NCBI RefSeq assembly: GCF_048403405.1
Contig: NZ_CP183129.1
DNA: 64,000 nt
Direction: 5' to 3' (one strand)
Source: Escherichia coli
GTDB taxonomy: Bacteria; Pseudomonadota; Gammaproteobacteria; Enterobacterales; Enterobacteriaceae
Under the pieces are notes generated by a model, which searched no databases, was not told the DNA's origin, and saw nothing but the letters and a program-made list of their open reading frames with translations. Shown here piece after piece: positions 15,478 through 64,000 of the stretch. Position 1 is the stretch's first letter, and every line of letters starts with the position of its first letter. A program made the position numbers and the translations under genes.

Positions 15478-18366
15478 ATGCCCAGCAGCACCTGGTTCAA
15501 AGCATTATTGTTGTTTGTTGCCCTTTGGGCACCCTTAAGTCAGGCAGAAACGGGATGGCAGCCGATTCAGGAAACCATCCGTAAAAGTGATAAAGATAAC
15601 CGCCAGTATCAGGCTATACGTCTGGATAACGGTATGGTGGTCTTGCTGGTTTCTGATCCGCAGGCGGTTAAATCGCTCTCGGCGCTGGTAGTGCCCGTTG
15701 GGTCGCTGGAAGATCCCGAGGCGTACCAGGGGCTGGCACATTACCTTGAACATATGAGTCTGATGGGGTCGAAAAAGTACCCGCAGGCTGACAGTCTGGC
15801 CGAATATCTCAAAATGCACGGCGGCAGTCACAATGCCAGCACGGCACCGTATCGCACGGCTTTCTATCTGGAAGTTGAGAACGACGCCTTGCCCGGTGCG
15901 GTGGACCGCCTGGCGGACGCTATTGCAGAACCCTTGCTCGACAAGAAATACGCCGAACGTGAACGTAATGCAGTGAATGCCGAATTAACCATGGCGCGTA
16001 CGCGTGACGGGATGCGCATGGCACAGGTCAGCGCAGAAACCATTAACCCGGCACACCCCGGTTCAAAGTTTTCTGGTGGTAACCTCGAAACTTTAAGCGA
16101 CAAACCCGGAAATCCGGTACAGCAGGCGCTGAAAGATTTCCACGAGAAGTACTATTCCGCCAATCTGATGAAGGCGGTTATTTACAGCAATAAACCGCTG
16201 CCGGAGTTGGCAAAAATGGCGGCGGACACCTTTGGTCGCGTGCCGAACAAAGAGAGCAAAAAACCGGAAATCACCGTGCCGGTAGTCACCGACGCGCAAA
16301 AGGGCATTATCATTCATTACGTCCCGGCGCTGCCGCGTAAAGTTCTGCGCGTTGAGTTTCGCATCGATAACAATTCAGCGAAGTTCCGTAGTAAAACGGA
16401 TGAATTGATTACCTATCTGATCGGTAATCGCAGCCCAGGTACACTTTCTGACTGGCTGCAAAAGCAGGGATTAGTTGAGGGCATTAGCGCCAATTCCGAT
16501 CCTATCGTCAACGGCAACAGCGGCGTATTAGCGATCTCTGCGTCTTTAACCGATAAAGGTCTGGCGAATCGCGATCAGGTTGTGGCGGCCATTTTTAGCT
16601 ACCTCAATCTGTTACGCGAAAAAGGGATTGATAAACAATACTTCGATGAACTGGCGAATGTGCTGGATATCGACTTTCGTTATCCGTCAATCACCCGTGA
16701 TATGGATTACGTCGAATGGCTGGCAGATACCATGATTCGCGTTCCTGTTGAGCATACGCTGGATGCAGTCAATATTGCCGATCGGTACGACGCTAAAGCA
16801 GTAAAAGAACGCCTGGCGATGATGACGCCGCAGAATGCGCGTATCTGGTATATCAGCCCGAAAGAGCCGCACAACAAAACGGCTTACTTTGTCGATGCGC
16901 CGTATCAGGTCGATAAAATCAGCGCACAAACTTTCGCCGACTGGCAGAAAAAATCCGCCGACATTGCGCTCTCTTTGCCAGAGCTTAACCCTTATATTCC
17001 TGACGATTTCTCGCTGATTAAGTCAGAGAAGAAATATGACCATCCAGAGCTGATTGTTGATGAGTCGAATCTGCGTGTGGTGTATGCGCCAAGCCGTTAT
17101 TTTTCCAGCGAACCCAAAGCTGATGTCAGCCTGATTTTGCGTAATCCGAAAGCCATGGACAGCGCCCGCAATCAGGTGATGTTTGCGCTCAATGATTATC
17201 TCGCAGGGCTGGCGCTTGATCAGTTAAGCAACCAGGCGTCGGTTGGTGGCATAAGTTTTTCCACCAACGCTAACAACGGCCTTATGGTTAATGCCAATGG
17301 TTACACCCAGCGCCTGCCGCAGCTGTTCCAGGCATTGCTCGAGGGGTACTTTAGCTATACCGCTACGGAAGATCAGCTTGAGCAGGCGAAGTCCTGGTAT
17401 AACCAGATGATGGATTCCGCAGAAAAGGGCAAAGCGTTCGAGCAGGCGATTATGCCCGCGCAGATGCTCTCGCAAGTGCCGTACTTCTCGCGAGATGAAC
17501 GGCGCAAAATTTTGCCTTCAATCACTTTGAAAGAGGTGCTGGCCTATCGCGACGCCTTAAAATCAGGGGCTCGACCAGAGTTTATGGTTATTGGCAACAT
17601 GACCGAAGCCCAGGCAACAACGCTGGCACGCGATGTGCAAAAACAGTTGGGCGCTGATGGTTCGGAGTGGTGTCGTAACAAAGATGTCGTGGTCGATAAA
17701 AAACAATCTGTCATCTTTGAAAAAGCCGGTAACAGCACCGACTCCGCACTGGCAGCGGTATTTGTACCGACTGGCTACGATGAATACACCAGCTCAGCCT
17801 ATAGCTCTCTGTTGGGGCAGATCGTACAGCCGTGGTTCTACAATCAGTTGCGTACCGAAGAACAGTTGGGCTATGCCGTGTTTGCGTTTCCAATGAGCGT
17901 GGGGCGTCAGTGGGGCATGGGCTTCCTGTTGCAAAGCAATGATAAACAGCCTTCATTCTTGTGGGAGCGTTACAAGGCGTTTTTCCCAACCGCAGAGGCA
18001 AAATTGCGGACGATGAAGCCAGAAGAGTTTGCGCAAATCCAGCAGGCGGTAATAACCCAGATGCTGCAGGCACCGCAAACGCTCGGCGAAGAAGCATCGA
18101 AGTTAAGTAAAGATTTCGATCGCGGCAATATGCGCTTCGATTCGCGTGATAAAATCGTGGCCCAGATAAAACTGCTGACGCCGCAAAAACTTGCTGATTT
18201 CTTCCATCAGGCGGTGGTCGAGCCGCAAGGCATGGCTATTCTGTCGCAGATTTCCGGCAGCCAGAACGGGAAAGCCGAATATGTGCATCCTGAAGGCTGG
18301 AAAGTGTGGGAGAACGTCAGCGCGTTGCAGCAAACAATGCCCTTGATGAGTGAAAAGAATGAGTGA
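15478..18366 (+). CDS. ptrA: protease III (pitrilysin), M16 zinc metalloprotease, periplasmic
   Basis: 962-aa ORF with signal peptide and inverted zinc motif HYLEHM; lies between recC and recB. Confidence 0.95.
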   Translation: MPSSTWFKALLLFVALWAPLSQAETGWQPIQETIRKSDKDNRQYQAIRLDNGMVVLLVSDPQAVKSLSALVVPVGSLEDPEAYQGLAHYLEHMSLMGSKKYPQADSLAEYLKMHGGSHNASTAPYRTAFYLEVENDALPGAVDRLADAIAEPLLDKKYAERERNAVNAELTMARTRDGMRMAQVSAETINPAHPGSKFSGGNLETLSDKPGNPVQQALKDFHEKYYSANLMKAVIYSNKPLPELAKMAADTFGRVPNKESKKPEITVPVVTDAQKGIIIHYVPALPRKVLRVEFRIDNNSAKFRSKTDELITYLIGNRSPGTLSDWLQKQGLVEGISANSDPIVNGNSGVLAISASLTDKGLANRDQVVAAIFSYLNLLREKGIDKQYFDELANVLDIDFRYPSITRDMDYVEWLADTMIRVPVEHTLDAVNIADRYDAKAVKERLAMMTPQNARIWYISPKEPHNKTAYFVDAPYQVDKISAQTFADWQKKSADIALSLPELNPYIPDDFSLIKSEKKYDHPELIVDESNLRVVYAPSRYFSSEPKADVSLILRNPKAMDSARNQVMFALNDYLAGLALDQLSNQASVGGISFSTNANNGLMVNANGYTQRLPQLFQALLEGYFSYTATEDQLEQAKSWYNQMMDSAEKGKAFEQAIMPAQMLSQVPYFSRDERRKILPSITLKEVLAYRDALKSGARPEFMVIGNMTEAQATTLARDVQKQLGADGSEWCRNKDVVVDKKQSVIFEKAGNSTDSALAAVFVPTGYDEYTSSAYSSLLGQIVQPWFYNQLRTEEQLGYAVFAFPMSVGRQWGMGFLLQSNDKQPSFLWERYKAFFPTAEAKLRTMKPEEFAQIQQAVITQMLQAPQTLGEEASKLSKDFDRGNMRFDSRDKIVAQIKLLTPQKLADFFHQAVVEPQGMAILSQISGSQNGKAEYVHPEGWKVWENVSALQQTMPLMSEKNE

Positions 18367-21300
18367 TGTCGCTGAGACACTAGATCCTTTGCGCTTGCCC
18401 TTACAGGGCGAGCGCCTGATTGAAGCCTCTGCCGGCACAGGCAAAACCTTTACGATTGCGGCGCTCTATTTGCGCCTGTTACTTGGACTAGGCGGTTCCG
18501 CCGCCTTTCCCCGCCCGCTGACCGTTGAAGAACTGCTGGTGGTCACCTTTACCGAGGCTGCCACGGCAGAATTGCGCGGTCGTATCCGTAGCAATATCCA
18601 CGAGTTGCGCATCGCCTGTCTGCGTGAAACCACCGACAATCCACTGTACGAACGCCTGCTGGAAGAGATCGACGATAAAGCGCAAGCCGCGCAGTGGTTG
18701 TTGTTAGCCGAACGGCAGATGGATGAAGCGGCAGTCTTTACTATTCACGGTTTTTGCCAGCGCATGCTCAACCTGAATGCCTTTGAATCCGGCATGCTGT
18801 TTGAGCAGCAGCTGATTGAAGATGAGTCTCTGCTACGCTACCAGGCCTGCGCCGATTTCTGGCGTCGCCACTGCTACCCGCTGCCGCGTGAAATTGCCCA
18901 GGTGGTCTTTGAAACCTGGAAAGGGCCGCAGGCGTTGCTGCGCGATATTAATCGTTATCTGCAAGGCGAGGCACCGGTTATCAAAGCACCGCCGCCCGAT
19001 GATGAAACGCTGGCTTCCCGCCACGCGCAAATTGTGGCGCGTATCGACGCCGTAAAACAGCAGTGGCGCGACGCAGTGGGTGAACTGGATGCGCTGATCG
19101 AATCTTCTGGTATTGATCGACGCAAGTTTAACCGTAGCAATCAGGCTAAATGGATCGAGAAGATCAGCGCCTGGGCAGAAGAAGAGACCAACAGTTATCA
19201 GTTACCGGAGTCGCTGGAAAAATTCTCTCAGCGTTTCTTAGAAGATCGCACGAAAGCCGGGGGGAAACCCCGCGACATCCACTGTTTGAGGCGATCGATC
19301 AACTGCTTGCAGAACCATTGTCGATCCGTGATCTGGTGATAACCCGCGCATTGGCTGAGATCCGCGAAACAGTAGCGCGTGAAAAACGCCGCCGTGGCGA
19401 ATTGGGTTTTGATGACATGTTAAGTCGGCTCGATTCCGCGCTGCGTAGCGAAAGCGGCGAGGTGTTGGCAGCGGCGATCCGTACGCGATTCCCGGTGGCA
19501 ATGATCGATGAATTTCAGGATACCGACCCCCAGCAGTACCGAATTTTTCGCAGTATCTGGCACCATCAGCCGGAAACCGCATTGTTGCTGATTGGCGACC
19601 CGAAGCAGGCCATATATGCATTCCGGGGGGCGGATATCTTCACTTATATGAAGGCGCGTAGCGAAGTTCACGCCCACTACACCTTAGATACCAATTGGCG
19701 CTCCGCACCAGGAATGGTGAACAGTGTGAACAAGCTTTTCAGCCAGACTGATGACGCGTTCATGTTTCGCGAAATACCGTTTATTCCAGTGAAATCAGCC
19801 GGGAAAAATCAGGCGTTACGTTTTGTCTTTAAAGGTGAAACGCAGCCTGCGATGAAAATGTGGCTGATGGAAGGCGAAAGCTGCGGCGTTGGCGACTATC
19901 AAAGTACCATGGCGCAGGTATGTGCTGCGCAAATCCGCGACTGGCTACAAGCCGGACAGCGGGGCGAAGCGTTGCTGATGAACGGCGACGACGCGCGTCC
20001 GGTGCGTGCTTCGGACATCAGTGTGCTGGTGCGCAGCCGTCAGGAGGCCGCCCAGGTGCGCGACGCCTTAACGTTGCTGGAAATCCCTTCCGTTTACCTT
20101 TCGAACCGCGACAGTGTTTTTGAAACTCTGGAAGCGCAGGAAATGCTTTGGTTGTTGCAGGCGGTGATGACGCCCGAACGTGAGAACACCCTGCGTAGTG
20201 CGCTGGCAACGTCAATGATGGGGCTGAACGCGCTGGATATCGAAACGCTGAACAATGACGAACATGCGTGGGATGCGGTAGTCGAAGAGTTCGATGGTTA
20301 TCGGCAAATCTGGCGCAAACGTGGCGTTATGCCGATGCTGCGGGCGCTGATGTCGGCGCGTAAGATTGCAGAAAACTTGCTGGCAACGGCAGGCGGTGAG
20401 CGGCGTCTTACCGATATCTTGCATATCAGCGAACTGCTACAAGAAGCCGGAACGCAGCTGGAAAGTGAACATGCGCTGGTACGCTGGTTATCGCAACATA
20501 TCCTCGAGCCAGACAGTAATGCCTCCAGCCAACAAATGCGCCTCGAAAGTGATAAACATCTGGTGCAGATTGTCACGATCCATAAATCAAAAGGGCTGGA
20601 ATATCCGCTGGTTTGGTTGCCATTTATTACCAATTTCCGCGTCCAGGATCAGGCGTTCTATCACGATCGCCACTCGTTTGAGGCTGTTCTGGATCTTAAC
20701 GCTGCGCCAGAAAGTGTCGATCTCGCGGAGGCCGAACGTCTGGCGGAAGATCTGCGTTTGCTTTACGTGGCGCTGACGCGTTCGGTTTGGCATTGCAGTC
20801 TCGGCGTTGCACCGCTGGTGCGCCGTCGTGGCGATAAAAAAGGTGACACCGACGTCCACCAAAGTGCGCTCGGGCGTTTGCTGCAAAAAGGGGAACCGCA
20901 AGATGCGGCAGGGCTTCGCACCTGTATTGAAGCGTTATGCGATGATGATATTGCCTGGCAAACGGCACAAACGGGTGATAACCAGCCCTGGCAGGTTAAT
21001 GATGCTATAACTGCAGAACTGAATGCGAGGACACTACAACGATTGCCCGGCGATAACTGGCGTGTCACCAGCTACTCCGGTTTGCAGCAGCGTGGTCACG
21101 GTATCGCTCAGGATCTGATGCCACGGCTGGATGTTGATGCCGCAGGCGTGGTCAGCGTCGTTGAAGAACCGACGTTAACACCGCATCAGTTCCCGCGCGG
21201 TGCGTCACCGGGGACATTCTTGCACAGTTTGTTTGAAGACCTCGATTTTACCCAGCCGGTTGACCCGAACTGGGTACAGGAAAAACTGGAACTCGGCGGC

Positions 21301-26861: not shown

Positions 26862-27686
26862 ATGATCATCGAAAAAGTCATGAACAATAATTGTGTACAG
26901 GCATCGATGAATGGACAGGAGGTTATCATTTCTGGACCTGGCGTCGGTTACAACAAAAAATATGGAATGTCGGTCCCTGAGCATCCGGCTAACCGGATTT
27001 TTTATGTCAGAAATGAACAAAAAAACAAACTCTATAAATTGATTGAACATGTAGATATTGAGTATGTGTTTGTTGCCGAAAAAATAGTGCAATATGCGGA
27101 GAAAAATCTCGAAAAAAATCTCAATCCATCGCTACTATTGATTCTTGCGGATCACATTTCGAATGCAATATCCCGAGTCGCTTCAGGTATACAAATTAAT
27201 AATGTTTTCCTTGATGAAATCAAAGCGTTGTACAAAGCAGAATATGCAATAAGCCGGGATGCATTAACCATCATCAATGAGCAATTTAGCTTTCAACTTC
27301 CGGATGATGAGATTGGTTTTATTGCATTGCATATTTTAAATAACTATGAAAATTCATCTGATTATGAATCGGTACGGATTATTGAATTATCTCAAAAAAT
27401 CACGGAGATTATCGAGGGTATTTATAACCGAAAGGTGGACAGAAGTTCATTTAACTATTCAAGATTTATGATGCACCTTAAGTATTTTTCTAATCGAGTT
27501 TTATGTAATGAAAAGATAAAACAGAAAGATATTGGTGACATCTATGAGCAGTTTCTTGAGAAAGACATCCTGTTACAGCGCGCAATTCATGAAATTGAAA
27601 GGTATCTGTATGCCACTTTTAAATATGAATTAATTTTAGAAGAAAAACTATATCTCTCAATTCGTACCAAAGTATTAATGGACTAA
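26862..27686 (+). CDS. BglG/LicT/SacY-family transcription antiterminator (CAT RNA-binding domain + two PRDs)
   Basis: ATG at 26862 preceded by ggag; N-terminus MIIEKVMNNNCV... aligns to LicT/BglG (MKIAKILNNNVV); the ORF-track start 26805 lies inside the leader terminator. Confidence 0.85.
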   Translation: MIIEKVMNNNCVQASMNGQEVIISGPGVGYNKKYGMSVPEHPANRIFYVRNEQKNKLYKLIEHVDIEYVFVAEKIVQYAEKNLEKNLNPSLLLILADHISNAISRVASGIQINNVFLDEIKALYKAEYAISRDALTIINEQFSFQLPDDEIGFIALHILNNYENSSDYESVRIIELSQKITEIIEGIYNRKVDRSSFNYSRFMMHLKYFSNRVLCNEKIKQKDIGDIYEQFLEKDILLQRAIHEIERYLYATFKYELILEEKLYLSIRTKVLMD

Positions 27687-27717
27687 TTATATATAACATT
27701 TATATGAGATAACCCAC

Positions 27718-29298
27718 ATGAAACAAAAGAAAGCCTGGAGTTTTTTTCAGAGCCTGGGGAAGGCATTTATGTATCCCATTGCTCTGCTAAGTGTATGTGG
27801 CATGATGCTAGGGCTAGGAAGTGGTTTAGCCAGTGATGATATGGCAAAGTTAATTCCATTTCTGGCTATTCCAATAATTAAAACCATACTTGATTTCATT
27901 GTTAGCCTTGGTTTGTTTGCCTTTGTTAATTTACCTGTATTGTTTGCGATAGCAATTCCCTTAGGATTATTAAAAGAGAAAGAGGATAAAGCCTATGGCG
28001 CTTTTTCTGGCTTAATTGGTTTTATGGCGATGCATCTGGGAACGAACTTTTATCTTAAACAGCACGACTTATTGGTCGCTGCTGACCAAATGTCGACACA
28101 TGGGCAAACCATCATTCTGGGGATCCAGTCCTACAATACCAGCGTGTTAGGGGGAATTGTTGCTGGGTTATTAGTCGCCAGCATGTATAAAAAGATCGTT
28201 AATTTACGCATTCCAGAATCATTAGGTTTTTATAGCGGCCCACGTCTGGTGCCTATCATTACACTGATTGTGATGAGTGGATTTGGTCTGATCATTCCTT
28301 TTATCTGGCCGCCGTTTTTCAATCTCTTCATGCTCATTGGCCACTGGATATCAACTTCCGGTCCTGTTGGTTATTTCTTCTATGCAGTTGCCGAACGTGT
28401 GACGATTCCTTTTGGCTTAAACCATCTGGTGACGTCAGTGTTCCGCTTTACGCCAATCGGCGGTTCGGCTGTGATTGGCGGCGAAGAGTATTACGGCACC
28501 CTGAACATGTTTATGGCGTACGTCAAAGAGAATGCGGTCATTCCGCTGGATTTGGCGGGGAAAATGGAGCAGGGCAAACTGATGATTCAGTACGGTCTGG
28601 CTGGTGCTGCACTGGCCATGTATCGCACTGCTCATGCTCAAAACAGAAAGGCTATCAAAGCATTGCTTATTTCCGGTGTGCTTACGGTTATTATTGGTGG
28701 CGTCAGCGAACCGATTGAATTTCTGTTCTTATTTGTCAGTCCGCTGCTGTTTGTCTTCCATGCCTTTATGAATGGATTCGCCAACATGGTCTTGCCATAT
28801 ATGGGCGTGAAGATGGGATTTACTGGCGATCTGATTCAATTTATTAGCTTTGGCGTATTGCGTGGCACAAGAACAGGTTGGCCGATCGCGGTGTGTGTCG
28901 AAGTGGCCTATTTCTTCATTTATTACTTTGTGTTCCGTTGGACCATTCTCAAATTTAACCTGATGACCGTAGGACGTGAAGAGTCCAGTCCTGTCACGCT
29001 GAACGCTCACGAAGAAACTGCAATAGCTAATATCCCAGCTTATGATAAATCAGAGTTGCAGGCAGCGGAGCAAATGGTTAAGGCTCTGGGTGGAAAAGAA
29101 AATATTAAATCACTGGATAATTGTGTCACTCGTTTGCGTTTAACTATCGCAGATATGGGATTGATAGATGAGGCTGCAATTAAAAGTGCCGGAGGGATTG
29201 CGGTTGTGAAACTTGATCAAAATACCTTACAAGTCATTATCGGCACTAAAGTCATCGCCCTGCGTCGGGATATGGATAACTACATGGGGATACGCTGA
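27718..29298 (+). CDS. PTS permease EIICB, glucose/maltose (MalX/PtsG-like) family; no EIIA domain
   Basis: 526-aa polytopic ORF; C-terminal EIIB domain with phospho-cysteine motif NCVTRLRL. Confidence 0.85.
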   Translation: MKQKKAWSFFQSLGKAFMYPIALLSVCGMMLGLGSGLASDDMAKLIPFLAIPIIKTILDFIVSLGLFAFVNLPVLFAIAIPLGLLKEKEDKAYGAFSGLIGFMAMHLGTNFYLKQHDLLVAADQMSTHGQTIILGIQSYNTSVLGGIVAGLLVASMYKKIVNLRIPESLGFYSGPRLVPIITLIVMSGFGLIIPFIWPPFFNLFMLIGHWISTSGPVGYFFYAVAERVTIPFGLNHLVTSVFRFTPIGGSAVIGGEEYYGTLNMFMAYVKENAVIPLDLAGKMEQGKLMIQYGLAGAALAMYRTAHAQNRKAIKALLISGVLTVIIGGVSEPIEFLFLFVSPLLFVFHAFMNGFANMVLPYMGVKMGFTGDLIQFISFGVLRGTRTGWPIAVCVEVAYFFIYYFVFRWTILKFNLMTVGREESSPVTLNAHEETAIANIPAYDKSELQAAEQMVKALGGKENIKSLDNCVTRLRLTIADMGLIDEAAIKSAGGIAVVKLDQNTLQVIIGTKVIALRRDMDNYMGIR

Positions 29299-30482
29299 TG
29301 AATGTTTTTAATACCCCTATCTCCCGTAAAGGAACATATTGCACTCAATGGGACTTTTGTGAGGACAGATTTGGTGTAAAAGATGTATTACCATTTTCTA
29401 TTTCAGATATGGATCTTCCGATACCGGAAGCTATCATCAGGGCATTAAAAAAACGCCTGGAACACCCGATTTTAGGGTACAGCCGTTGGCAGCATGATGA
29501 TTATCTGAATGCGATAGTCAATTGGTATCATCAACAATATAAAACTGAAATAAAACCAGAATGGATCACCTATAGCCCAAGTGTGATGTATTCAATTGCT
29601 AAGGCAATAGAGTTATTAACATTGAATGGAGATAACATTCTCATTTTTACGCCTGTTTATAACGCATTTTTTGATGTAATTAAACAAAGTGGTCGAAATA
29701 TGCTAACAACCTCTTTGAATAAAGAAAATGAGAGAGGCTACGCTATCAACTGGCAAGATTTTGAGCTAAAAATTAAAAGCGCGAAGATGGTGTTATTGTG
29801 TAATCCTCATAACCCGACAGGAACCGTCTGGTCGGAAGAAGATCTCTTCAAAATCGCTGCAAGCTGCGCAAAACAAAAAATCTGGCTATGTTCAGATGAA
29901 ATTCACAGTGATTTTGTTTTTAACCATGGTTTCACGTCCGCGTTAAAAATAAAAAATGACAAAGTAGTGGTGTTAAATTCGATTTCGAAAACATTTAATG
30001 TTCCTGCACTAACAGGATCATATATGATATCCGCTGACCAGGATTTTAATGATAAGTTTAGAACGATATCAAGATATCGCGATTTTGTAAACTCACCATC
30101 TATATTGAATGTGATTGCTACCATTGTTGCTTATAACGAATGTGAAGAATGGTTAAAGTCGTTAAAGGATCATATTGCCTCTAACATTCAATTTACCCAG
30201 CAGTATTTGAATGAAAATATTCCAGAATTGATCGTGAGGTCCGCTGAGGGTTGCTATTTTTCGTGGATAGATTGCTCGGCCATTGGCTATCCCTTTGATA
30301 AATTTTACCGACGATTAATTGATGAAGGGAAAGTGGGTATTATGGCGGGGTATGTTTATGGTACGGAAGGTGAGGGCTATCTGCGTCTGAATCTGGCCTG
30401 CGGTCGAGAAAAATTATATATGGGGCTTGTGCGCCTTGCGAGTGTAATTAAAAATATTAATCAGGAAAAAGAAAATGAATAA
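29298..30482 (+). CDS. MalY/PatB-like PLP-dependent C-S lyase (aminotransferase class I/II fold)
   Basis: 394 aa; N-terminus GTYCTQWDF...DVLPFSISDMD closely parallels MalY; PLP-lysine motif SISKTFN; start overlaps the PTS stop. Confidence 0.8.
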   Translation: MNVFNTPISRKGTYCTQWDFCEDRFGVKDVLPFSISDMDLPIPEAIIRALKKRLEHPILGYSRWQHDDYLNAIVNWYHQQYKTEIKPEWITYSPSVMYSIAKAIELLTLNGDNILIFTPVYNAFFDVIKQSGRNMLTTSLNKENERGYAINWQDFELKIKSAKMVLLCNPHNPTGTVWSEEDLFKIAASCAKQKIWLCSDEIHSDFVFNHGFTSALKIKNDKVVVLNSISKTFNVPALTGSYMISADQDFNDKFRTISRYRDFVNSPSILNVIATIVAYNECEEWLKSLKDHIASNIQFTQQYLNENIPELIVRSAEGCYFSWIDCSAIGYPFDKFYRRLIDEGKVGIMAGYVYGTEGEGYLRLNLACGREKLYMGLVRLASVIKNINQEKENE

Positions 30483-31071
30483 CTCGGAACTTATACATCT
30501 TATTAAACATTTTATGCGTAACGAACATAAGGCCGTTGAAGAGGTTATTGATTCCCCACTTTCTGAAGTCGCTAATTTAATTAAAGTATTACAATCTTGT
30601 CAGGGTAAAGTTGTTTTTATTGGTGTTGGTAAGTCCGGTATTATTGCCAGAAAACTCGCAGCAACATTTGCCAGTACCGGAACTCCCTCGTTTTTTGTTC
30701 ACGGTACGGAAGCGGTACACGGCGACCTTGGAATGGTGGCGAAAGACGATGTTGTTATTCTTATTTCAAACAGTGGTGAGACGGCGGAAATCCTGGCGAC
30801 ACTGCCTAGTCTGAAAAGAATGGGTAATTATTTGATCTCTTTTACCCGCAGTCATCACTCATCGCTTGCGATAAGTTGTGATTTATCTGTTGAAATCCCC
30901 GTCAAAAGTGAGGCGGATAATTTAGGTTTAGCACCGTCATGCTCGTCTACTGTTGTTCTGGTTGTTGGTGATGCGGTGGCGCTTGCACTCTCCGAATTGA
31001 AAAAATTTACTCGTGCCGATTTCGGCTTATATCATCCAGGAGGTGCACTCGGCATTAAAGCAAATTCATAA
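30475..31071 (+). CDS. SIS-domain-only sugar-phosphate isomerase-like protein (resembles the N-terminal half of KdsD/GutQ arabinose-5-phosphate isomerases, no CBS domains)
   Basis: 198 aa; motifs GVGKSGIIARKLAATFASTGTPSFFVHGTEAVHGDLGM, SNSGET and HPGGALG; start overlaps the MalY-like stop by 8 nt. Confidence 0.8.
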   Translation: MNNSELIHLIKHFMRNEHKAVEEVIDSPLSEVANLIKVLQSCQGKVVFIGVGKSGIIARKLAATFASTGTPSFFVHGTEAVHGDLGMVAKDDVVILISNSGETAEILATLPSLKRMGNYLISFTRSHHSSLAISCDLSVEIPVKSEADNLGLAPSCSSTVVLVVGDAVALALSELKKFTRADFGLYHPGGALGIKANS

Positions 31072-31142
31072 TTTCAAAATATAAATACAGTAACCGGTCA
31101 CGCCATCTTTTGGGGTGGCGTTCATTGAAGTGAGTGTCAGCT

Positions 31143-32090
31143 ATGAAAAATGTTCTGGTCACCGTCCCCAGCTTTTCAGCACGCTGTGTTTCCGCCAGCA
31201 AGTTGCTAAGAGAGAATAATTTTAATCTTATTATTAAGAATAATGTGGAGCATCTGCTTAAATCAGAATCCACTGCATTACGAGAATCTATTTGCGCGGT
31301 CATCGCCGGAAAAGATTGTTATCAGGCGGATACGCTATCATTGCTGCCTGGTGTGAAAATAATATCGAGATTCGGGACGGGGATAGACAATATTGATCTT
31401 CGTGCGGCACAGCAATCCGGTATTGTAGTCAAAAATGCGGTTGGGATTAATTCAAATGCGGTTGCGGAATTTATCATTGGACTTATCTTTGCGAGCATGA
31501 GAAATATTCCTGGCAGCTATCATGCGATGCAAAATGGCTACTGGGTTGAGTCGCATGGCTGTGAATTACAAGGGAAACGGATTGGCCTGGTTGGCTACGG
31601 TAATATAGGTAAAACCCTGGCGAAAAGGTTGTCTGGTTTTGATGTTGAGCTTTTAGCTTTTGACAAACAACCCGATTTTCAGGCCGCTGGCAAAGATGGA
31701 GTTCAGTTTGTATCAATTGAAGATATCTTTATGCAGTCGCATGTCATCATTGTTCTTTTACCTTTTTCTCCTGAGCTGGAGAACTTCATTAGTCATAAAT
31801 ATTTGTCAATGATGCGCAATGGTGCTCTGATCATCAATGCCGCAAGGGGAAAGTTGCTGGATGAGGGCGCTTTACTTCAGGTGATTGAAGAACGAAATGT
31901 GTTTGCGGCGCTGGATGTGTTTAGCTCTGAACCGTTGGCGCAATTTAGCCCACTGCTACATGCCAAAAATATCATTACAACGCCGCATATTGCGGCCGCC
32001 ACCGTTGAGTCATACCAGCAAACCGGGATACACGTTGCCCAGTCAATAATTGATTACTTCGCAGGAAGGGAGATAAAAAACGTGTTGTGA
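31143..32090 (+). CDS. D-isomer-specific 2-hydroxyacid dehydrogenase, NAD-binding
   Basis: ATG at 31143 preceded by gaagtgag (ORF-track 31134 is a GTG upstream); Rossmann motif GLVGYGNIGKTLAKRL. Confidence 0.8.
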   Translation: MKNVLVTVPSFSARCVSASKLLRENNFNLIIKNNVEHLLKSESTALRESICAVIAGKDCYQADTLSLLPGVKIISRFGTGIDNIDLRAAQQSGIVVKNAVGINSNAVAEFIIGLIFASMRNIPGSYHAMQNGYWVESHGCELQGKRIGLVGYGNIGKTLAKRLSGFDVELLAFDKQPDFQAAGKDGVQFVSIEDIFMQSHVIIVLLPFSPELENFISHKYLSMMRNGALIINAARGKLLDEGALLQVIEERNVFAALDVFSSEPLAQFSPLLHAKNIITTPHIAAATVESYQQTGIHVAQSIIDYFAGREIKNVL

Positions 32091-32168: not shown

Positions 32169-32245
<77 letters not shown>

Positions 32246-32279
32246 TCACCGTACTGCTTTTACTTCATCAAATTTTGAT

Positions 32280-32356
<77 letters not shown>

Positions 32357-32389
32357 TCACCGTACTGCTTTACTTCATCAAATTTTAAT

Positions 32390-32466
<77 letters not shown>

Positions 32467-36788: not shown

Positions 36789-36994
36789 AAAAAAAAGCAC
36801 CGCAATTAGGCGGTGCTACATTAATCACTATGGACAGACAGGGTAAATGTACAGGAAGTGAAAAAAGGTAGCTTTGCTACCATGGTCTGAATCGCAGACC
36901 AATTGCAAACACAACAACACAACATCACAACCGTAAGCCAAAAGTTCACCAGAACACGCATTCCGATAAAACTTTTCGTTCCGGCTCAGGAAGT
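36789..36994 (-). ncRNA. gcvB: GcvB small regulatory RNA (GT-rich target-binding region, intrinsic terminator)
   Basis: Reverse complement reads ACTTCCTGAGCCGGAACG...GTTGTGATGTTGTGTTGTTGTGTTTGCAATTGG...GCACCGCCTAATTGCGGTGCTTTTTTTT, which matches gcvB as I remember it; divergent from gcvA. Confidence 0.85.
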
Positions 36995-54457: not shown

Positions 54458-55003
54458 GTGGACGATTTGACCGCACAAGCCCTGAAAGATTTTACTGCAC
54501 GCTACTGCGATGCGTGGCATGAAGAGCATAAAAGCTGGCCGTTGAGTGAGGAACTGTACGGCGTTCCTTCACCGTGCATTATTTCAACCACCGAAGATGC
54601 CGTATACTGGCAACCCCAGCCGTTTACCGGGGAACAAAATGTAAACGCGGTTGAACGCGCTTTTGATCTTGTGATACAACCCACAATTCATACCTTTTAT
54701 ACGACTCAGTTTGCCGGGGATATGCACGCGCAGTTTGGCGATATCAAACTGACATTGCTGCAAACCTGGAGTGAAGACGACTTCCGTCGGGTGCAGGAAA
54801 ATCTGATTGGTCATCTGGTGACTCAGAAAAGGCTAAAATTGCCGCCCACGCTATTTATCGCGACGCTGGAAGAAGAGTTAGAGGTCATCTCGGTGTGTAA
54901 TCTCTCCGGTGAAGTGTGTAAAGAGACGCTGGGAACACGTAAACGGACGCATTTAGCCTCAAATCTTGCGGAATTCCTTAATCAACTTAAGCCTCTTCTG
55001 TAA
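54458..55003 (+). CDS. syd: SecY-interacting protein Syd
   Basis: 181-aa ORF upstream of csrB. Confidence 0.85.
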
Positions 55004-55022
55004 TCCAAATACCCCATCTGGT

Positions 55023-55040
55023 TGTGAGAGATCTCTTACA
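55023..55040. promoter_or_regulatory. 18-bp imperfect palindrome TGTGAGAGATCTCTTACA, UvrY(SirA)-type response-regulator binding site upstream of csrB
   Basis: Read directly; matches the UvrY/SirA site described for csrB as I remember it; about 175-190 bp upstream of the csrB 5' end. Confidence 0.6.
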
Positions 55041-55213
55041 GACTCTGTAGGAGATCGCCAGGAAATAAGCGAATACTTAAAAAGATAAGAATCGTTATTT
55101 TCATTTAAAATCAATATATTGCTTGTCAATTCTTAACTTTCATATGAAGTTTTCCTTAAGGCATTGTCTGTAAGCGCCTTGTAAGACTTCGCGAAAAAGA
55201 CGATTCTATCTTC

Positions 55214-55580
55214 GTCGACAGGGAGTCAGACAACGAAGTGAACATCAGGATGATGACACTTCTGAAGGACACACCAGGATGGTGTTTCAGGGAAAGGCTT
55301 CTGGATGAAGCGAAGAGGATGACGCAGGACGCGTTAAAGGACACCTCCAGGATGGAGAATGAGAACCGGTCAGGATGATTCGGTGGGTCAGGAAGGCCAG
55401 GGACACTTCAGGATGAAGTATCACATCGGGGTGGTGTGAGCAGGAAGCAATAGTTCAGGATGAACGATTGGCCGCAAGGCCAGAGGAAAAGTTGTCAAGG
55501 ATGAGCAGGGAGCAACAAAAGTAGCTGGAATGCTGCGAAACGAACCGGGAGCACTGTGAATACAGTGCTCCCTTTTTTTA
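55214..55580 (+). ncRNA. csrB: CsrB regulatory RNA (CsrA-sequestering; many GGA motifs; strong intrinsic terminator)
   Basis: Starts GTCGACAGGGAGTCAGACAACG...; roughly 18 CAGGA(U/A)G-type GGA motifs counted by eye; ends with hairpin gggagcactgtgaatacagtgctccc plus T8. Confidence 0.9.
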
Positions 55581-55624
55581 TTCCTGCTATCCTTCGCGGC
55601 AGTTTTTCTTATTGAGGTTGCTTT

Positions 55625-55954
55625 ATGACCACTCATGACCGCGTTCGTCTCCAGCTGCAGGCGCTTGAAGCATTACTGCGTGAACATCAGCACTGGCAAA
55701 ACGATGAACCCCAGCCGCATCAATTTAACAGTACCCAACCGTTCTTTATGGACACCATGGAACCACTGGAGTGGTTGCAGTGGGTGCTGATCCCGCGAAT
55801 GCACGATTTGTTAGATAACAACCAGCCGTTACCGGGCGCTTTTGCCGTTGCACCCTATTATGAAATGGTGCTGGCGACGGACCACCCGCAACGCGCGCTT
55901 ATTCTGGCTGAGCTGGAAAAACTGGATGCTCTTTTTGCGGATGATGCGAGCTAA
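55625..55954 (+). CDS. yqcC: DUF446 family protein
   Basis: 109-aa ORF; stop overlaps the truC start. Confidence 0.8.
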   Translation: MTTHDRVRLQLQALEALLREHQHWQNDEPQPHQFNSTQPFFMDTMEPLEWLQWVLIPRMHDLLDNNQPLPGAFAVAPYYEMVLATDHPQRALILAELEKLDALFADDAS

Positions 55955-61863: not shown

Positions 61864-64000
61864 TTACCCGAGAATTTTGCTGGCTTCGCGCGCGACATTA
61901 TCCATCTCGTCCAACAGTTCCAGCAGCTCCGGCTCCAAATCTTCTTCTTTAGTACCGCTACGTAGCTGTTGTTCGATCAGCTGGCAGAGATTCTTCATAC
62001 GCGGCACACCGCTATAGCCGCAACTGCCATGCAGTTTATGAATCAAATCAACCAGGCCTTCCGGGTTTTCTCCAACCAGCTGTTCCTCAACTTTGTTGCG
62101 AACTTCAGGCAGGAAATCGAGTAACATTTGCAGCATATCGCGCGCTAAATCGGTTTTTCCTGCTGCCTGGCGTAGTGCCAGTTGCCAGTCGAGGGTCGCA
62201 TTCGGGTTCACCACAATTTCGTTGACTTCGGGCGTCACGACGCGAGACGAAATACCGCTGCCAGGCTTGTAGCGCAACAACAAATTATGCAATCGCTCTT
62301 CTTCAATCGGTTTCGCCAGATAATCGCTCATCCCTGCGCCAAGCAGCTTCTCTTTTTGCCCGGCCATTGCATGCGCCGTTACCGCGATAACTGGCGTTTG
62401 TTGCTGATGGGGGAGCTGGTGGATGAGTTCGCAGGCCCGAATGCCGTCCATGTCCGGCATTTGAATATCCATTAAGATCAAATCGAACGGCATCTGTTTC
62501 GCCCGTTCAACCGCCTGATGCCCGCTATCGCAAAGTTCCACATGTTGCACCATATCTTCCAGCAATGCGCCGATAAGTTTCAGGTTAGCGGGGTTGTCAT
62601 CAACCGCCATGACTGTCATTGCCAGCTTACTTTCATCGGTTACAGGCAAAAGCGTGTTTTGTTTGTGATGACAAAATTCCGTCAGGGCAGGTAACAGGCG
62701 CGTAGGTGTTAATGGTTTCAGCAGACACGCGCCGATACCATCTTGCTTAAGTTTTTCAGCATTGACTTGTGCATGGCAAGGAAGTGCCAGCATCAGAAAA
62801 TCGGTCATCGATACCGCTTTCGCTAATCGCTCATGTTGCATTGTTAGCGGCTCGCGGAAGGTCACCGCGATGCCTAACAACATCATGTCGTAATGCGCGG
62901 GAGGCAGCGCGGAGAACGTTGGGCTATAAACCACTTCCAGCGGCGTTTCACTTAAAATATCCAGCGTGCATTGCGCTGCTGCGGAGTTTGGTTCGACATA
63001 GGCCAGGCGCTTGCCGGCTAGGCACTGGGTGGATGGCCCTTCGATAATAATGTTCGGGTTCAGATCGAGATTAATGTGGAACCAGAAAGTTGAACCGCGA
63101 TTCGGCTGGCTATGGAACGAAATATCGCCGCCCATTTCATTAACCAGTTTTTGTGTAATCACCAGCCCCAGCCCGGTGCCACCATGACGGCGGGAAATAC
63201 TGGCATCAGCCTGTCGGAAGGCCTGGAATAAGCGCGATTGATCGCGTTCAGGAATACCAATGCCGGTATCCCGAATCTGCACTTCAATCTGCACTTTAGT
63301 ATTACTCAGAGCACGTTTTTCTACCAGAATATCAATGTTGCCATTCTCGGTGAATTTAATTGCATTCCCCACCAGGTTAGTGATGATTTGCTGTAATCGC
63401 AGTGGGTCGCCGATCACGTTATCGGGCACGTCGCTCTTAATATTGAGCGTCAGTTCCAACCCTTTATCGTGAGAAGAATGTGCCAGCAGGGTAACGACTT
63501 CATCCAGCGTGCTGCGTAGTGGGAATGGAATACTTTCCAGAATCAGCTTACCTGCTTCCAGTTTCGAGAAGTCGAGAACATCATTAATAATTGCCAGCAA
63601 ATTATTTGCCGAACGTTCAATCGTATTCAGGTGATCGCGCTGCGTTGGTGTTAATTCTGTTTTCAGCGTCAGGCGGGTAAAGCCAATAACACCATTCAGT
63701 GGTGTACGCAGCTCGTGTGACATATTTGCAAGAAACTCGGATTTAATACGCGCCGCTTCCTGGGCGCGCTTTTTCGCCAGATCCAACTCAACGTTCTGAA
63801 TTTCCATCTGCTCCAGCGTTTCACGCAGATCGGACGTCGCCTGGTCGATATTGTGCTGCATCTCTTCGTGATAAGCAGCCAGCGACATTGCCATCGAGTT
63901 GATACCGTTTTTCAGCATATCCAGCTCGCCGAGCATAAATCCTTCCACACGGCTGTCGAGTTGCCCGCGACGGATGCGGTCGACGGTATTCACCATATTG
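61864..64000 (-). CDS. barA: hybrid sensor histidine kinase BarA, C-terminal part (HisKA/HATPase, receiver, HPt); N-terminus lies beyond the window
   Basis: ORF open to the window edge; H-box [10 protein letters not shown], receiver domain and C-terminal HPt. Confidence 0.9.

Follow-up and report, generated by a model that had tools for sequence, protein, structure and literature searches.

In Escherichia coli K-12 the binding of the phosphorylated response regulator UvrY (UvrY-P) upstream of the small RNA gene csrB has been shown by ChIP-exo, ChIP-PCR and DNase I footprinting, and it involves an 18-nt inverted repeat with the same letters as the repeat described here, on which the upstream UvrY ChIP-exo peak is centred and which UvrY-P protects in footprints, its centre being at -183/-182 (Zere et al., 2015; PMC4682653). 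The same study described an extra half-site, TGTAGGAGA, 5 bp past the repeat, and a putative IHF site that falls between the distal and the promoter-proximal UvrY cross-linking regions; it found CsrB levels about 10-fold lower in ihf mutants and an in vivo UvrY binding about 35-fold lower without BarA (PMC4682653). Binding and sequestration of CsrA by CsrB are established for the K-12 allele (PMC7652899). In the mechanism proposed for the present locus, BarA would sense short-chain carboxylates and phosphorylate UvrY, and UvrY-P would bind the 18-nt inverted repeat at -183/-182, probably with the adjacent third half-site; IHF near -100 would bend the DNA, so that the distant activator could act on a weak sigma-70 promoter. 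The 369-nt CsrB would expose some 22 GGA motifs, often in the loops of short hairpins, by which CsrA dimers would be bound and sequestered, and this sequestration would relieve the control of CsrA on its mRNA targets.

The stretch of E. coli chromosome analyzed here (64 kb at its full length, hereafter the window) almost certainly contains the complete csrB transcription unit of this species, working as described for K-12, with barA close by as a matter of inherited gene order and not of functional coupling. The sRNA, the UvrY-P site, the extra half-site, the IHF requirement and the BarA dependence have already been published for this exact sequence, and the locus adds nothing new for the Csr field. 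Since an sRNA gene, the distal site of its activator and the gene of the cognate sensor were correctly recognized from sequence only, it is nonetheless a good positive control, and none of the results contradicted the identification of csrB, of the UvrY site or of BarA. The relevant features are:

54458 to 55003, plus strand: syd, SecY-interacting protein (NCBIfam NF003439, 285.8 bits; syd in RefSeq), with its stop codon 20 bp before the UvrY site
55023 to 55040, no strand assigned: 18-nt inverted repeat TGTGAGAGATCTCTTACA, the UvrY-P site, exact, unique in the window and equal to the published footprint
55046 to 55056, plus strand: third half-site TGTAGGAGATC, separated from the repeat by 5 bp and a direct repeat of its left half-site
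55109 to 55121, plus strand: IHF-like site AATCAATATATTG, fitting the IHF consensus WATCAANNNNTTR, with its centre near -99
55179 to 55207, plus strand: putative sigma-70 core promoter, with -35 TTGTAA at 55179-55184, a 17-bp spacer and -10 GATTCT at 55202-55207
55214 to 55582, plus strand: csrB sRNA gene, about 369 nt, delimited by the RF00018 match, its motifs and the published +1
55547 to 55579, plus strand: intrinsic terminator of csrB, with an 11-bp stem, a GAAT loop and seven T
55625 to 55954, plus strand: yqcC, the downstream flank of csrB, followed by truC, yqcA, gudP, gudX and gudD
61864 to 64000, minus strand: 3' 77% of barA (residues ~208-918), cut by the window end and convergent with gudD

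The first 45.7 kb of the window were 99.99% identical to strain 4621, with one gap (BLAST), and the last 18.6 kb differed from the same strain at three positions. The 801 bp around csrB were 100% identical in strain 4621 and in three other genomes; the csrB region was found in 5,425 of 5,426 complete E. coli genomes, most of them 95-99% identical over the 801 bp and 628 at 99% or more. Elsewhere in the window, a five-gene accessory cluster (26862-32090) is flanked by amiC on one side and three tandem tRNA genes on the other. It encodes a PRD-domain regulator, a PTS EIIC, a MalY/PatB-family protein, a KpsF/GutQ-type isomerase and a phosphoglycerate dehydrogenase, and occurs in only 1,689 of the 5,426 complete genomes, most copies being 90-95% identical. 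The three tRNA genes (32172-32466, minus strand, tRNA-Met in RefSeq) and the GcvB sRNA gene (36789-36994, minus strand, Rfam 199 bits), divergent from gcvA, are ordinary known features. Outside the window, some 11 kb from its right end, the RefSeq annotation of strain 4621 has a CRISPR repeat array directly after queE (locus L074, 13598-14001). Both csrB and gcvB are missing from the RefSeq feature tables of the region (NZ_CP103479.1), and in strain 120899 (NZ_CP025916.1; locus L075, 427-593) a pseudo-CDS annotated as 'hypothetical protein; frameshifted; internal stop' lies over csrC, which scores 278.7 bits with the Rfam CsrC model at 401-654; the pseudo-CDS looks like an annotation artefact. 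With csrB and gcvB omitted from RefSeq/PGAP tables and csrC covered by a pseudo-CDS, annotation-based pipelines therefore miss or mislabel these genes.

The gene that closes the window had been read from its letters as the 3' part of barA, about 6 kb from csrB, and both statements are borne out. The ORF scored 1272.9 bits against the NCBIfam BarA equivalog NF008318 (cut-off 890), matching profile positions 208-917 of 920; the first ~207 residues of BarA fall outside the window, and the match above the cut-off takes in the hybrid kinase domains as far as the HPt domain at the C terminus. A near-identical RefSeq genome carries the same gene under the name barA, with 918 aa. Between the csrB 3' end and the barA stop codon (61864) there are 6,282 bp.

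The conservation of this proximity, which had also been claimed, was surveyed with one genome per species, BarA as anchor and 10-kb flanks, locating csrB by nhmmer. In 34 loci csrB lay downstream of barA in convergent orientation, with 1,670-9,456 bp (median 7.3 kb) from the 3' end of barA to that of csrB. The order barA...yqcA-truC-yqcC-csrB-syd runs across Enterobacteriaceae and Erwiniaceae at distances of about 1.7 to 11 kb, those of Erwiniaceae falling at 9.5-11 kb; the distances vary with the presence or absence of gudPXD and of other inserts: where the gud genes are absent, as in E. albertii, Pluralibacter and others, barA is 1.7-2.8 kb from csrB. In six more loci (Citrobacter gillenii, Erwinia endophytica, Mixta, two Pantoea and [Erwinia] mediterraneensis) the genes follow this order too, and the 10-kb flank ends right at yqcA or yqcC. 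A loss of linkage in these six was considered and rejected, given that gene mapping placed yqcA or yqcC at the flank edge and that csrB was present in the one locus that was extended. In that locus, from Pantoea sp. WMus005, csrB (Rfam 216.6 bits) lies 10,974 bp from barA, between syd and yqcC, and carries the repeat TGTAAGACATCTCTTACA and the third half-site, while garD, garL, garR and garK are added between barA and csrB. Overall, the block was retained in 40 of 47 informative Enterobacterales loci.

Neither nhmmer nor a search for hidden copies, based on a profile built from 35 csrB hits, an AGGA-density scan and Rfam models run on 12 of the nhmmer-negative loci, revealed a csrB less than 10 kb away from barA in Yersinia nurmii, Rahnella, Rouxiella, Edwardsiella, two Moritella and Candidatus Pantoea persica. 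In Yersinia nurmii (locus L039, 12842-22161) the genes degP, dgt, mtnN, btuF, a PRK10578-family gene and clcA directly follow barA, the sign of a rearrangement breakpoint just 3' of this gene. The same locus holds a 328-aa ORF (18487-19470) with weak N-terminal similarity to the type III effectors SopD/SopD2 (E 2e-13), far below the family cut-off. In Candidatus Pantoea persica (locus L056) two OmrA-B family sRNA genes (17109-17216 and 18918-18994), 4.4-6.3 kb downstream of barA, replace the gud...csrB block, an arrangement that suggests a deletion or rearrangement in this genome. The claim of a conserved proximity holds for Enterobacteriaceae and Erwiniaceae (34 loci within 10 kb, six with the same order, one of them verified at 11 kb) but not for Yersinia, Rahnella, Rouxiella, Edwardsiella, Moritella and Candidatus Pantoea persica, and the conservation is limited to a single clade. 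The survey in this way sets the phylogenetic limits of the barA-csrB linkage, present in Enterobacteriaceae and Erwiniaceae and broken in Yersiniaceae, Hafniaceae and beyond.

Two further observations concern the DNA around csrB in the surveyed loci. In an uncultured Enterobacteriaceae MAG (locus L028, 15983-17029, minus strand) two tandem, full-length csrB genes (Rfam 251 and 256 bits) stand between yqcC and syd; the copies are 86% identical, including 200 nt upstream, and each has 23 GGA and its own UvrY-type repeat near -182. A tandem duplication of csrB has been described in Vibrio (PMC6262261), and no description of one in Enterobacteriaceae was found. Pluralibacter gergoviae (locus L021, 14441-15497) and Klebsiella sp. 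BIGb0407 (locus L031, 11968-12942) carry about 1 kb of extra DNA between yqcC and the csrB 3' end, compared with about 50 bp in other genera.

It could be supposed that selection keeps barA and csrB close together, so as to couple the sensor gene functionally with its main output gene, possible reasons being co-inheritance, a shared chromosomal domain or supercoiling state, or a gene dosage matched during replication. The persistence of the block through two families, despite gain and loss of gud and gar genes, speaks for such a coupling and is compatible with a weak selection for linkage. We nevertheless consider it very unlikely. The distance varies 6.5-fold (1.67-10.97 kb), the intervening genes are unrelated (glucarate/galactarate catabolism, truC, yqcA), and the two genes are convergent and hence share no promoter. 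Yersiniaceae, Hafniaceae and Moritella no longer show the linkage, whereas according to the literature csrB/rsmB still adjoins syd in Yersinia and Pectobacterium, and the deeply conserved partner of csrB is therefore syd and not barA. No uvrY gene was present in the window, and neither uvrY, which we take to be located away from barA, nor the second target csrC, found between yihA and yihI, is linked to barA. On the other side of barA, the divergent rlmD-relA-mazG genes are kept out to Moritella and Alcanivorax, and pyrG-eno as well within Enterobacterales, a linkage that is far deeper and has no known functional tie; the csrB side is the less conserved of the two neighborhoods of barA. Moreover, a text search of a library of papers combining csrB and barA with synteny or genomic context terms returned no paper on their gene order or proposing their coupling. 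The proximity of barA and csrB is the ordinary inherited gene order of the Enterobacteriaceae-Erwiniaceae clade, and nothing indicates a functional role for it.

Upstream of csrB, the 18-nt repeat was the sole match to its own sequence in 64 kb when up to three mismatches were allowed (0.01 expected), and it differed from its own reverse complement at two positions, i.e., eight of nine pairs are complementary. The transcription start of csrB was placed at 55214 (GTCGACAGGGAG...) by setting the published repeat centre on 55031/55032; this +1 is nine bases ahead of the start of the Rfam match, and the centre of the repeat is 182.5 bp upstream of it. Position 55023, at which the sequence-only reading began, is hence the start of the palindrome, the csrB gene itself starting at 55214. 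The imperfect palindrome that had been noticed about 180 bp upstream and assigned to the UvrY type proved to be, more exactly, the published UvrY-P footprint sequence itself (PMC4682653). The extra half-site at 55046-55056 is in the window part of an inverted repeat.

An RNA-level function may be imagined for these repeats (55023-55056), which would then serve mainly as a hairpin terminating or stabilizing the syd transcript instead of a protein-binding DNA site. They start 20 bp past the syd stop codon, as would suit such a role, and the arms 55030-55042 and 55044-55056 could pair as a 13-bp RNA hairpin; yet no T run follows them on either strand and a terminator scan was empty there. In addition, the sequence itself is kept beyond its pairing potential, the exact 18-mer recurring in 27 of 35 csrB promoters, the distance of the repeat is fixed with respect to the csrB +1 and variable with respect to the syd stop codon, and UvrY-P footprints this very sequence (PMC4682653). 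A main role as an RNA hairpin is for these reasons extremely improbable, and the repeats are best regarded as the DNA site of UvrY-P.

Two GATC (Dam) sites lie 23 bp apart in the UvrY site, one exactly in the middle of the 18-nt repeat (55031-55034) and the other in the third half-site (55053-55056). In the orthologous promoters GATC was retained at the repeat centre in 32 of 35 cases and in the third half-site in 24 of 35. UvrY-P binding and Dam methylation might compete at these positions and, if they did, csrB activation would respond to replication or to the state of methylation, or would vary from cell to cell. It is simpler to see GATC as an automatic consequence of the preferred half-site ...GAGA|TCTC..., and since the half-site consensus alone explains its presence, we assign a low probability to the competition. 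A text search of the same library for csrB with Dam or GATC methylation found no paper linking both.

The promoter architecture was compared in the 260 bp upstream of each aligned csrB 5' end, in a set of 35 promoters (the window and 34 others) from about 20 genera, ranging from Escherichia to Pantoea stewartii. The palindrome and its spacing, whose conservation in orthologs had been proposed as a check, were kept in all 35: a repeat of the form TGTNRG-N6-CYNACA starts between -189 and -194 (mode -191) in every promoter, and a third half-site follows it by 4-5 bp, again in 35 of 35; in 26 promoters this half-site shares at least 9 of its 11 positions with TGTGAGAGATC. A TCAN5TTR core is present at -102 to -106 in 26 of the 35 promoters. 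In an alignment of 15 genera the intervening DNA diverges freely, and the repeat, the third half-site, the IHF-like core, TTGTAAGAC at the -35 and GATTCTAT at the -10 are fixed, the TTGT of the -35 being invariant and GATTCTAT nearly so. The survey thereby quantifies a rigid promoter geometry, and the conserved layout agrees with the published model, where bending of the DNA by IHF repositions a distal activator of the FixJ family (PMC4682653). Both the identity of all the parts of the unit and the conservation of the promoter layout across about 20 genera are direct observations of the present analysis.

The -35 and -10 elements were placed from their spacing to the published +1 and from conservation; a sigma-70 consensus scan of 54900-55700 reported no promoter at threshold. 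The conserved -35 region (55179-55187) reads TTGTAAGAC and resembles the UvrY half-site TGTAAGAGA, and in most genera its conservation runs 3 nt beyond the hexamer. A promoter-proximal UvrY ChIP-exo signal has been reported at both csrB and csrC, and the half-site-like TGTAAGAC overlapping the csrB -35 was considered as its general source. This candidate was discarded: csrC has the proximal signal and a promoter without such an element, so TGTAAGAC alone cannot explain the signal at both genes.

Kulkarni et al. (2006) listed five criteria for sRNAs that regulate CsrA, namely an intergenic location, richness in AGGA, a terminator, GGA motifs in loops and a conserved upstream site, and csrB of the window shows all five. 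It is intergenic, lying after syd (end 55003) and before yqcC (start 55625). In a scan of the whole window the Rfam model RF00018 (CsrB) matched 55223-55582 on the plus strand over its full length (positions 1-356 of 356) with 382.9 bits against a gathering score of 71 (E 2e-111), and CsrB was the best match when overlapping matches of the clan were reduced to one. The transcript (55214-55582) contains 22 GGA, 14 AGGA and six CAGGATG, compared with 12.3, 3.8 and 0.03 expected in composition-matched shuffles, and its AGGA density is the maximum of the window, no other 370-nt stretch on either strand of the 64 kb coming close. Its fold had a minimum free energy of -119.9 kcal/mol (z-score -4.3 vs. 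dinucleotide shuffles), the majority of the GGA motifs were in loops in both the minimum free energy and the centroid folds, and eleven GGA-loop hairpins aligned with the Rfam consensus structure. The terminator hairpin (55547-55572), the last helix in that structure, has seven G-C pairs in its stem and a 4-nt loop, and is followed by seven T. The sequence-only reading, which had recognized csrB by its CAGGAUG/AGGA motifs and strong terminator and had proposed the CsrB covariance model and a count of GGA in the predicted structure as checks, is fully sustained on these points. With respect to what we take to be the K-12 csrB sequence, the window has A for C before one AGGA and another terminator loop, with no motif lost.

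CsrB and CsrC share a GGA-hairpin design and one Rfam clan, but there is practically no chance that the GGA-rich region is another Csr/Rsm member such as CsrC, or fortuitously GGA-rich intergenic DNA, and this identity was refuted by the best clan match being CsrB over the full model, by the location of the E. coli CsrC, matching RF00084, at another locus between yihA and yihI, and by the six CAGGATG in place of the 0.03 expected. The region is csrB, and by its near-identity to the K-12 allele its RNA can be expected to sequester CsrA in the strain of the window as well.

Among the described systems, the closest is csrB of E. coli K-12 (Liu et al., 1997; Suzuki et al., 2002; Zere et al., 2015, PMC4682653), which occupies the same locus between syd and yqcC and has the identical 18-nt UvrY repeat at -183/-182, the extra TGTAGGAGA, the IHF-type site, the body of GGA hairpins and the terminator; the difference is limited to strain-level polymorphism. 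The csrB of Salmonella enterica, described with a SirA box and an IHF site (Martinez et al., 2014; Zere et al., 2015), has the same 18-nt repeat with its centre at -182/-181, the same third half-site, the dependence on IHF and the flanking yqcC and syd, although it belongs to another species and its sRNA body, of the same Rfam family, has diverged. UvrY-P and IHF binding, BarA dependence and CsrA sequestration are taken from the literature on these systems, and sequence identity with K-12 and Salmonella makes it probable that the same mechanism operates at the locus of the window. E. coli csrC (RF00084, clan CL00106) is likewise activated by UvrY-P via an upstream 18-nt element and acts as a GGA-hairpin sponge, but its own repeat, TGTGAGACATTGCCGATA, is less symmetric, its expression is IHF-independent and its locus is another one. 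More distantly, rsmY/rsmZ of Pseudomonas and rsmB of Erwinia/Pectobacterium are the GGA-rich sponge RNAs of orthologous GacS/GacA-type systems, with a palindromic box of the same half-site type. The GacA box of Pseudomonas, with the consensus TGTAAGN6CTTACA, is much closer to the promoter than the UvrY site of csrB, and rsmY and rsmZ are shorter RNAs of other Rfam families which do not lie beside gacS, rsmZ being located between rpoS and fdxA.
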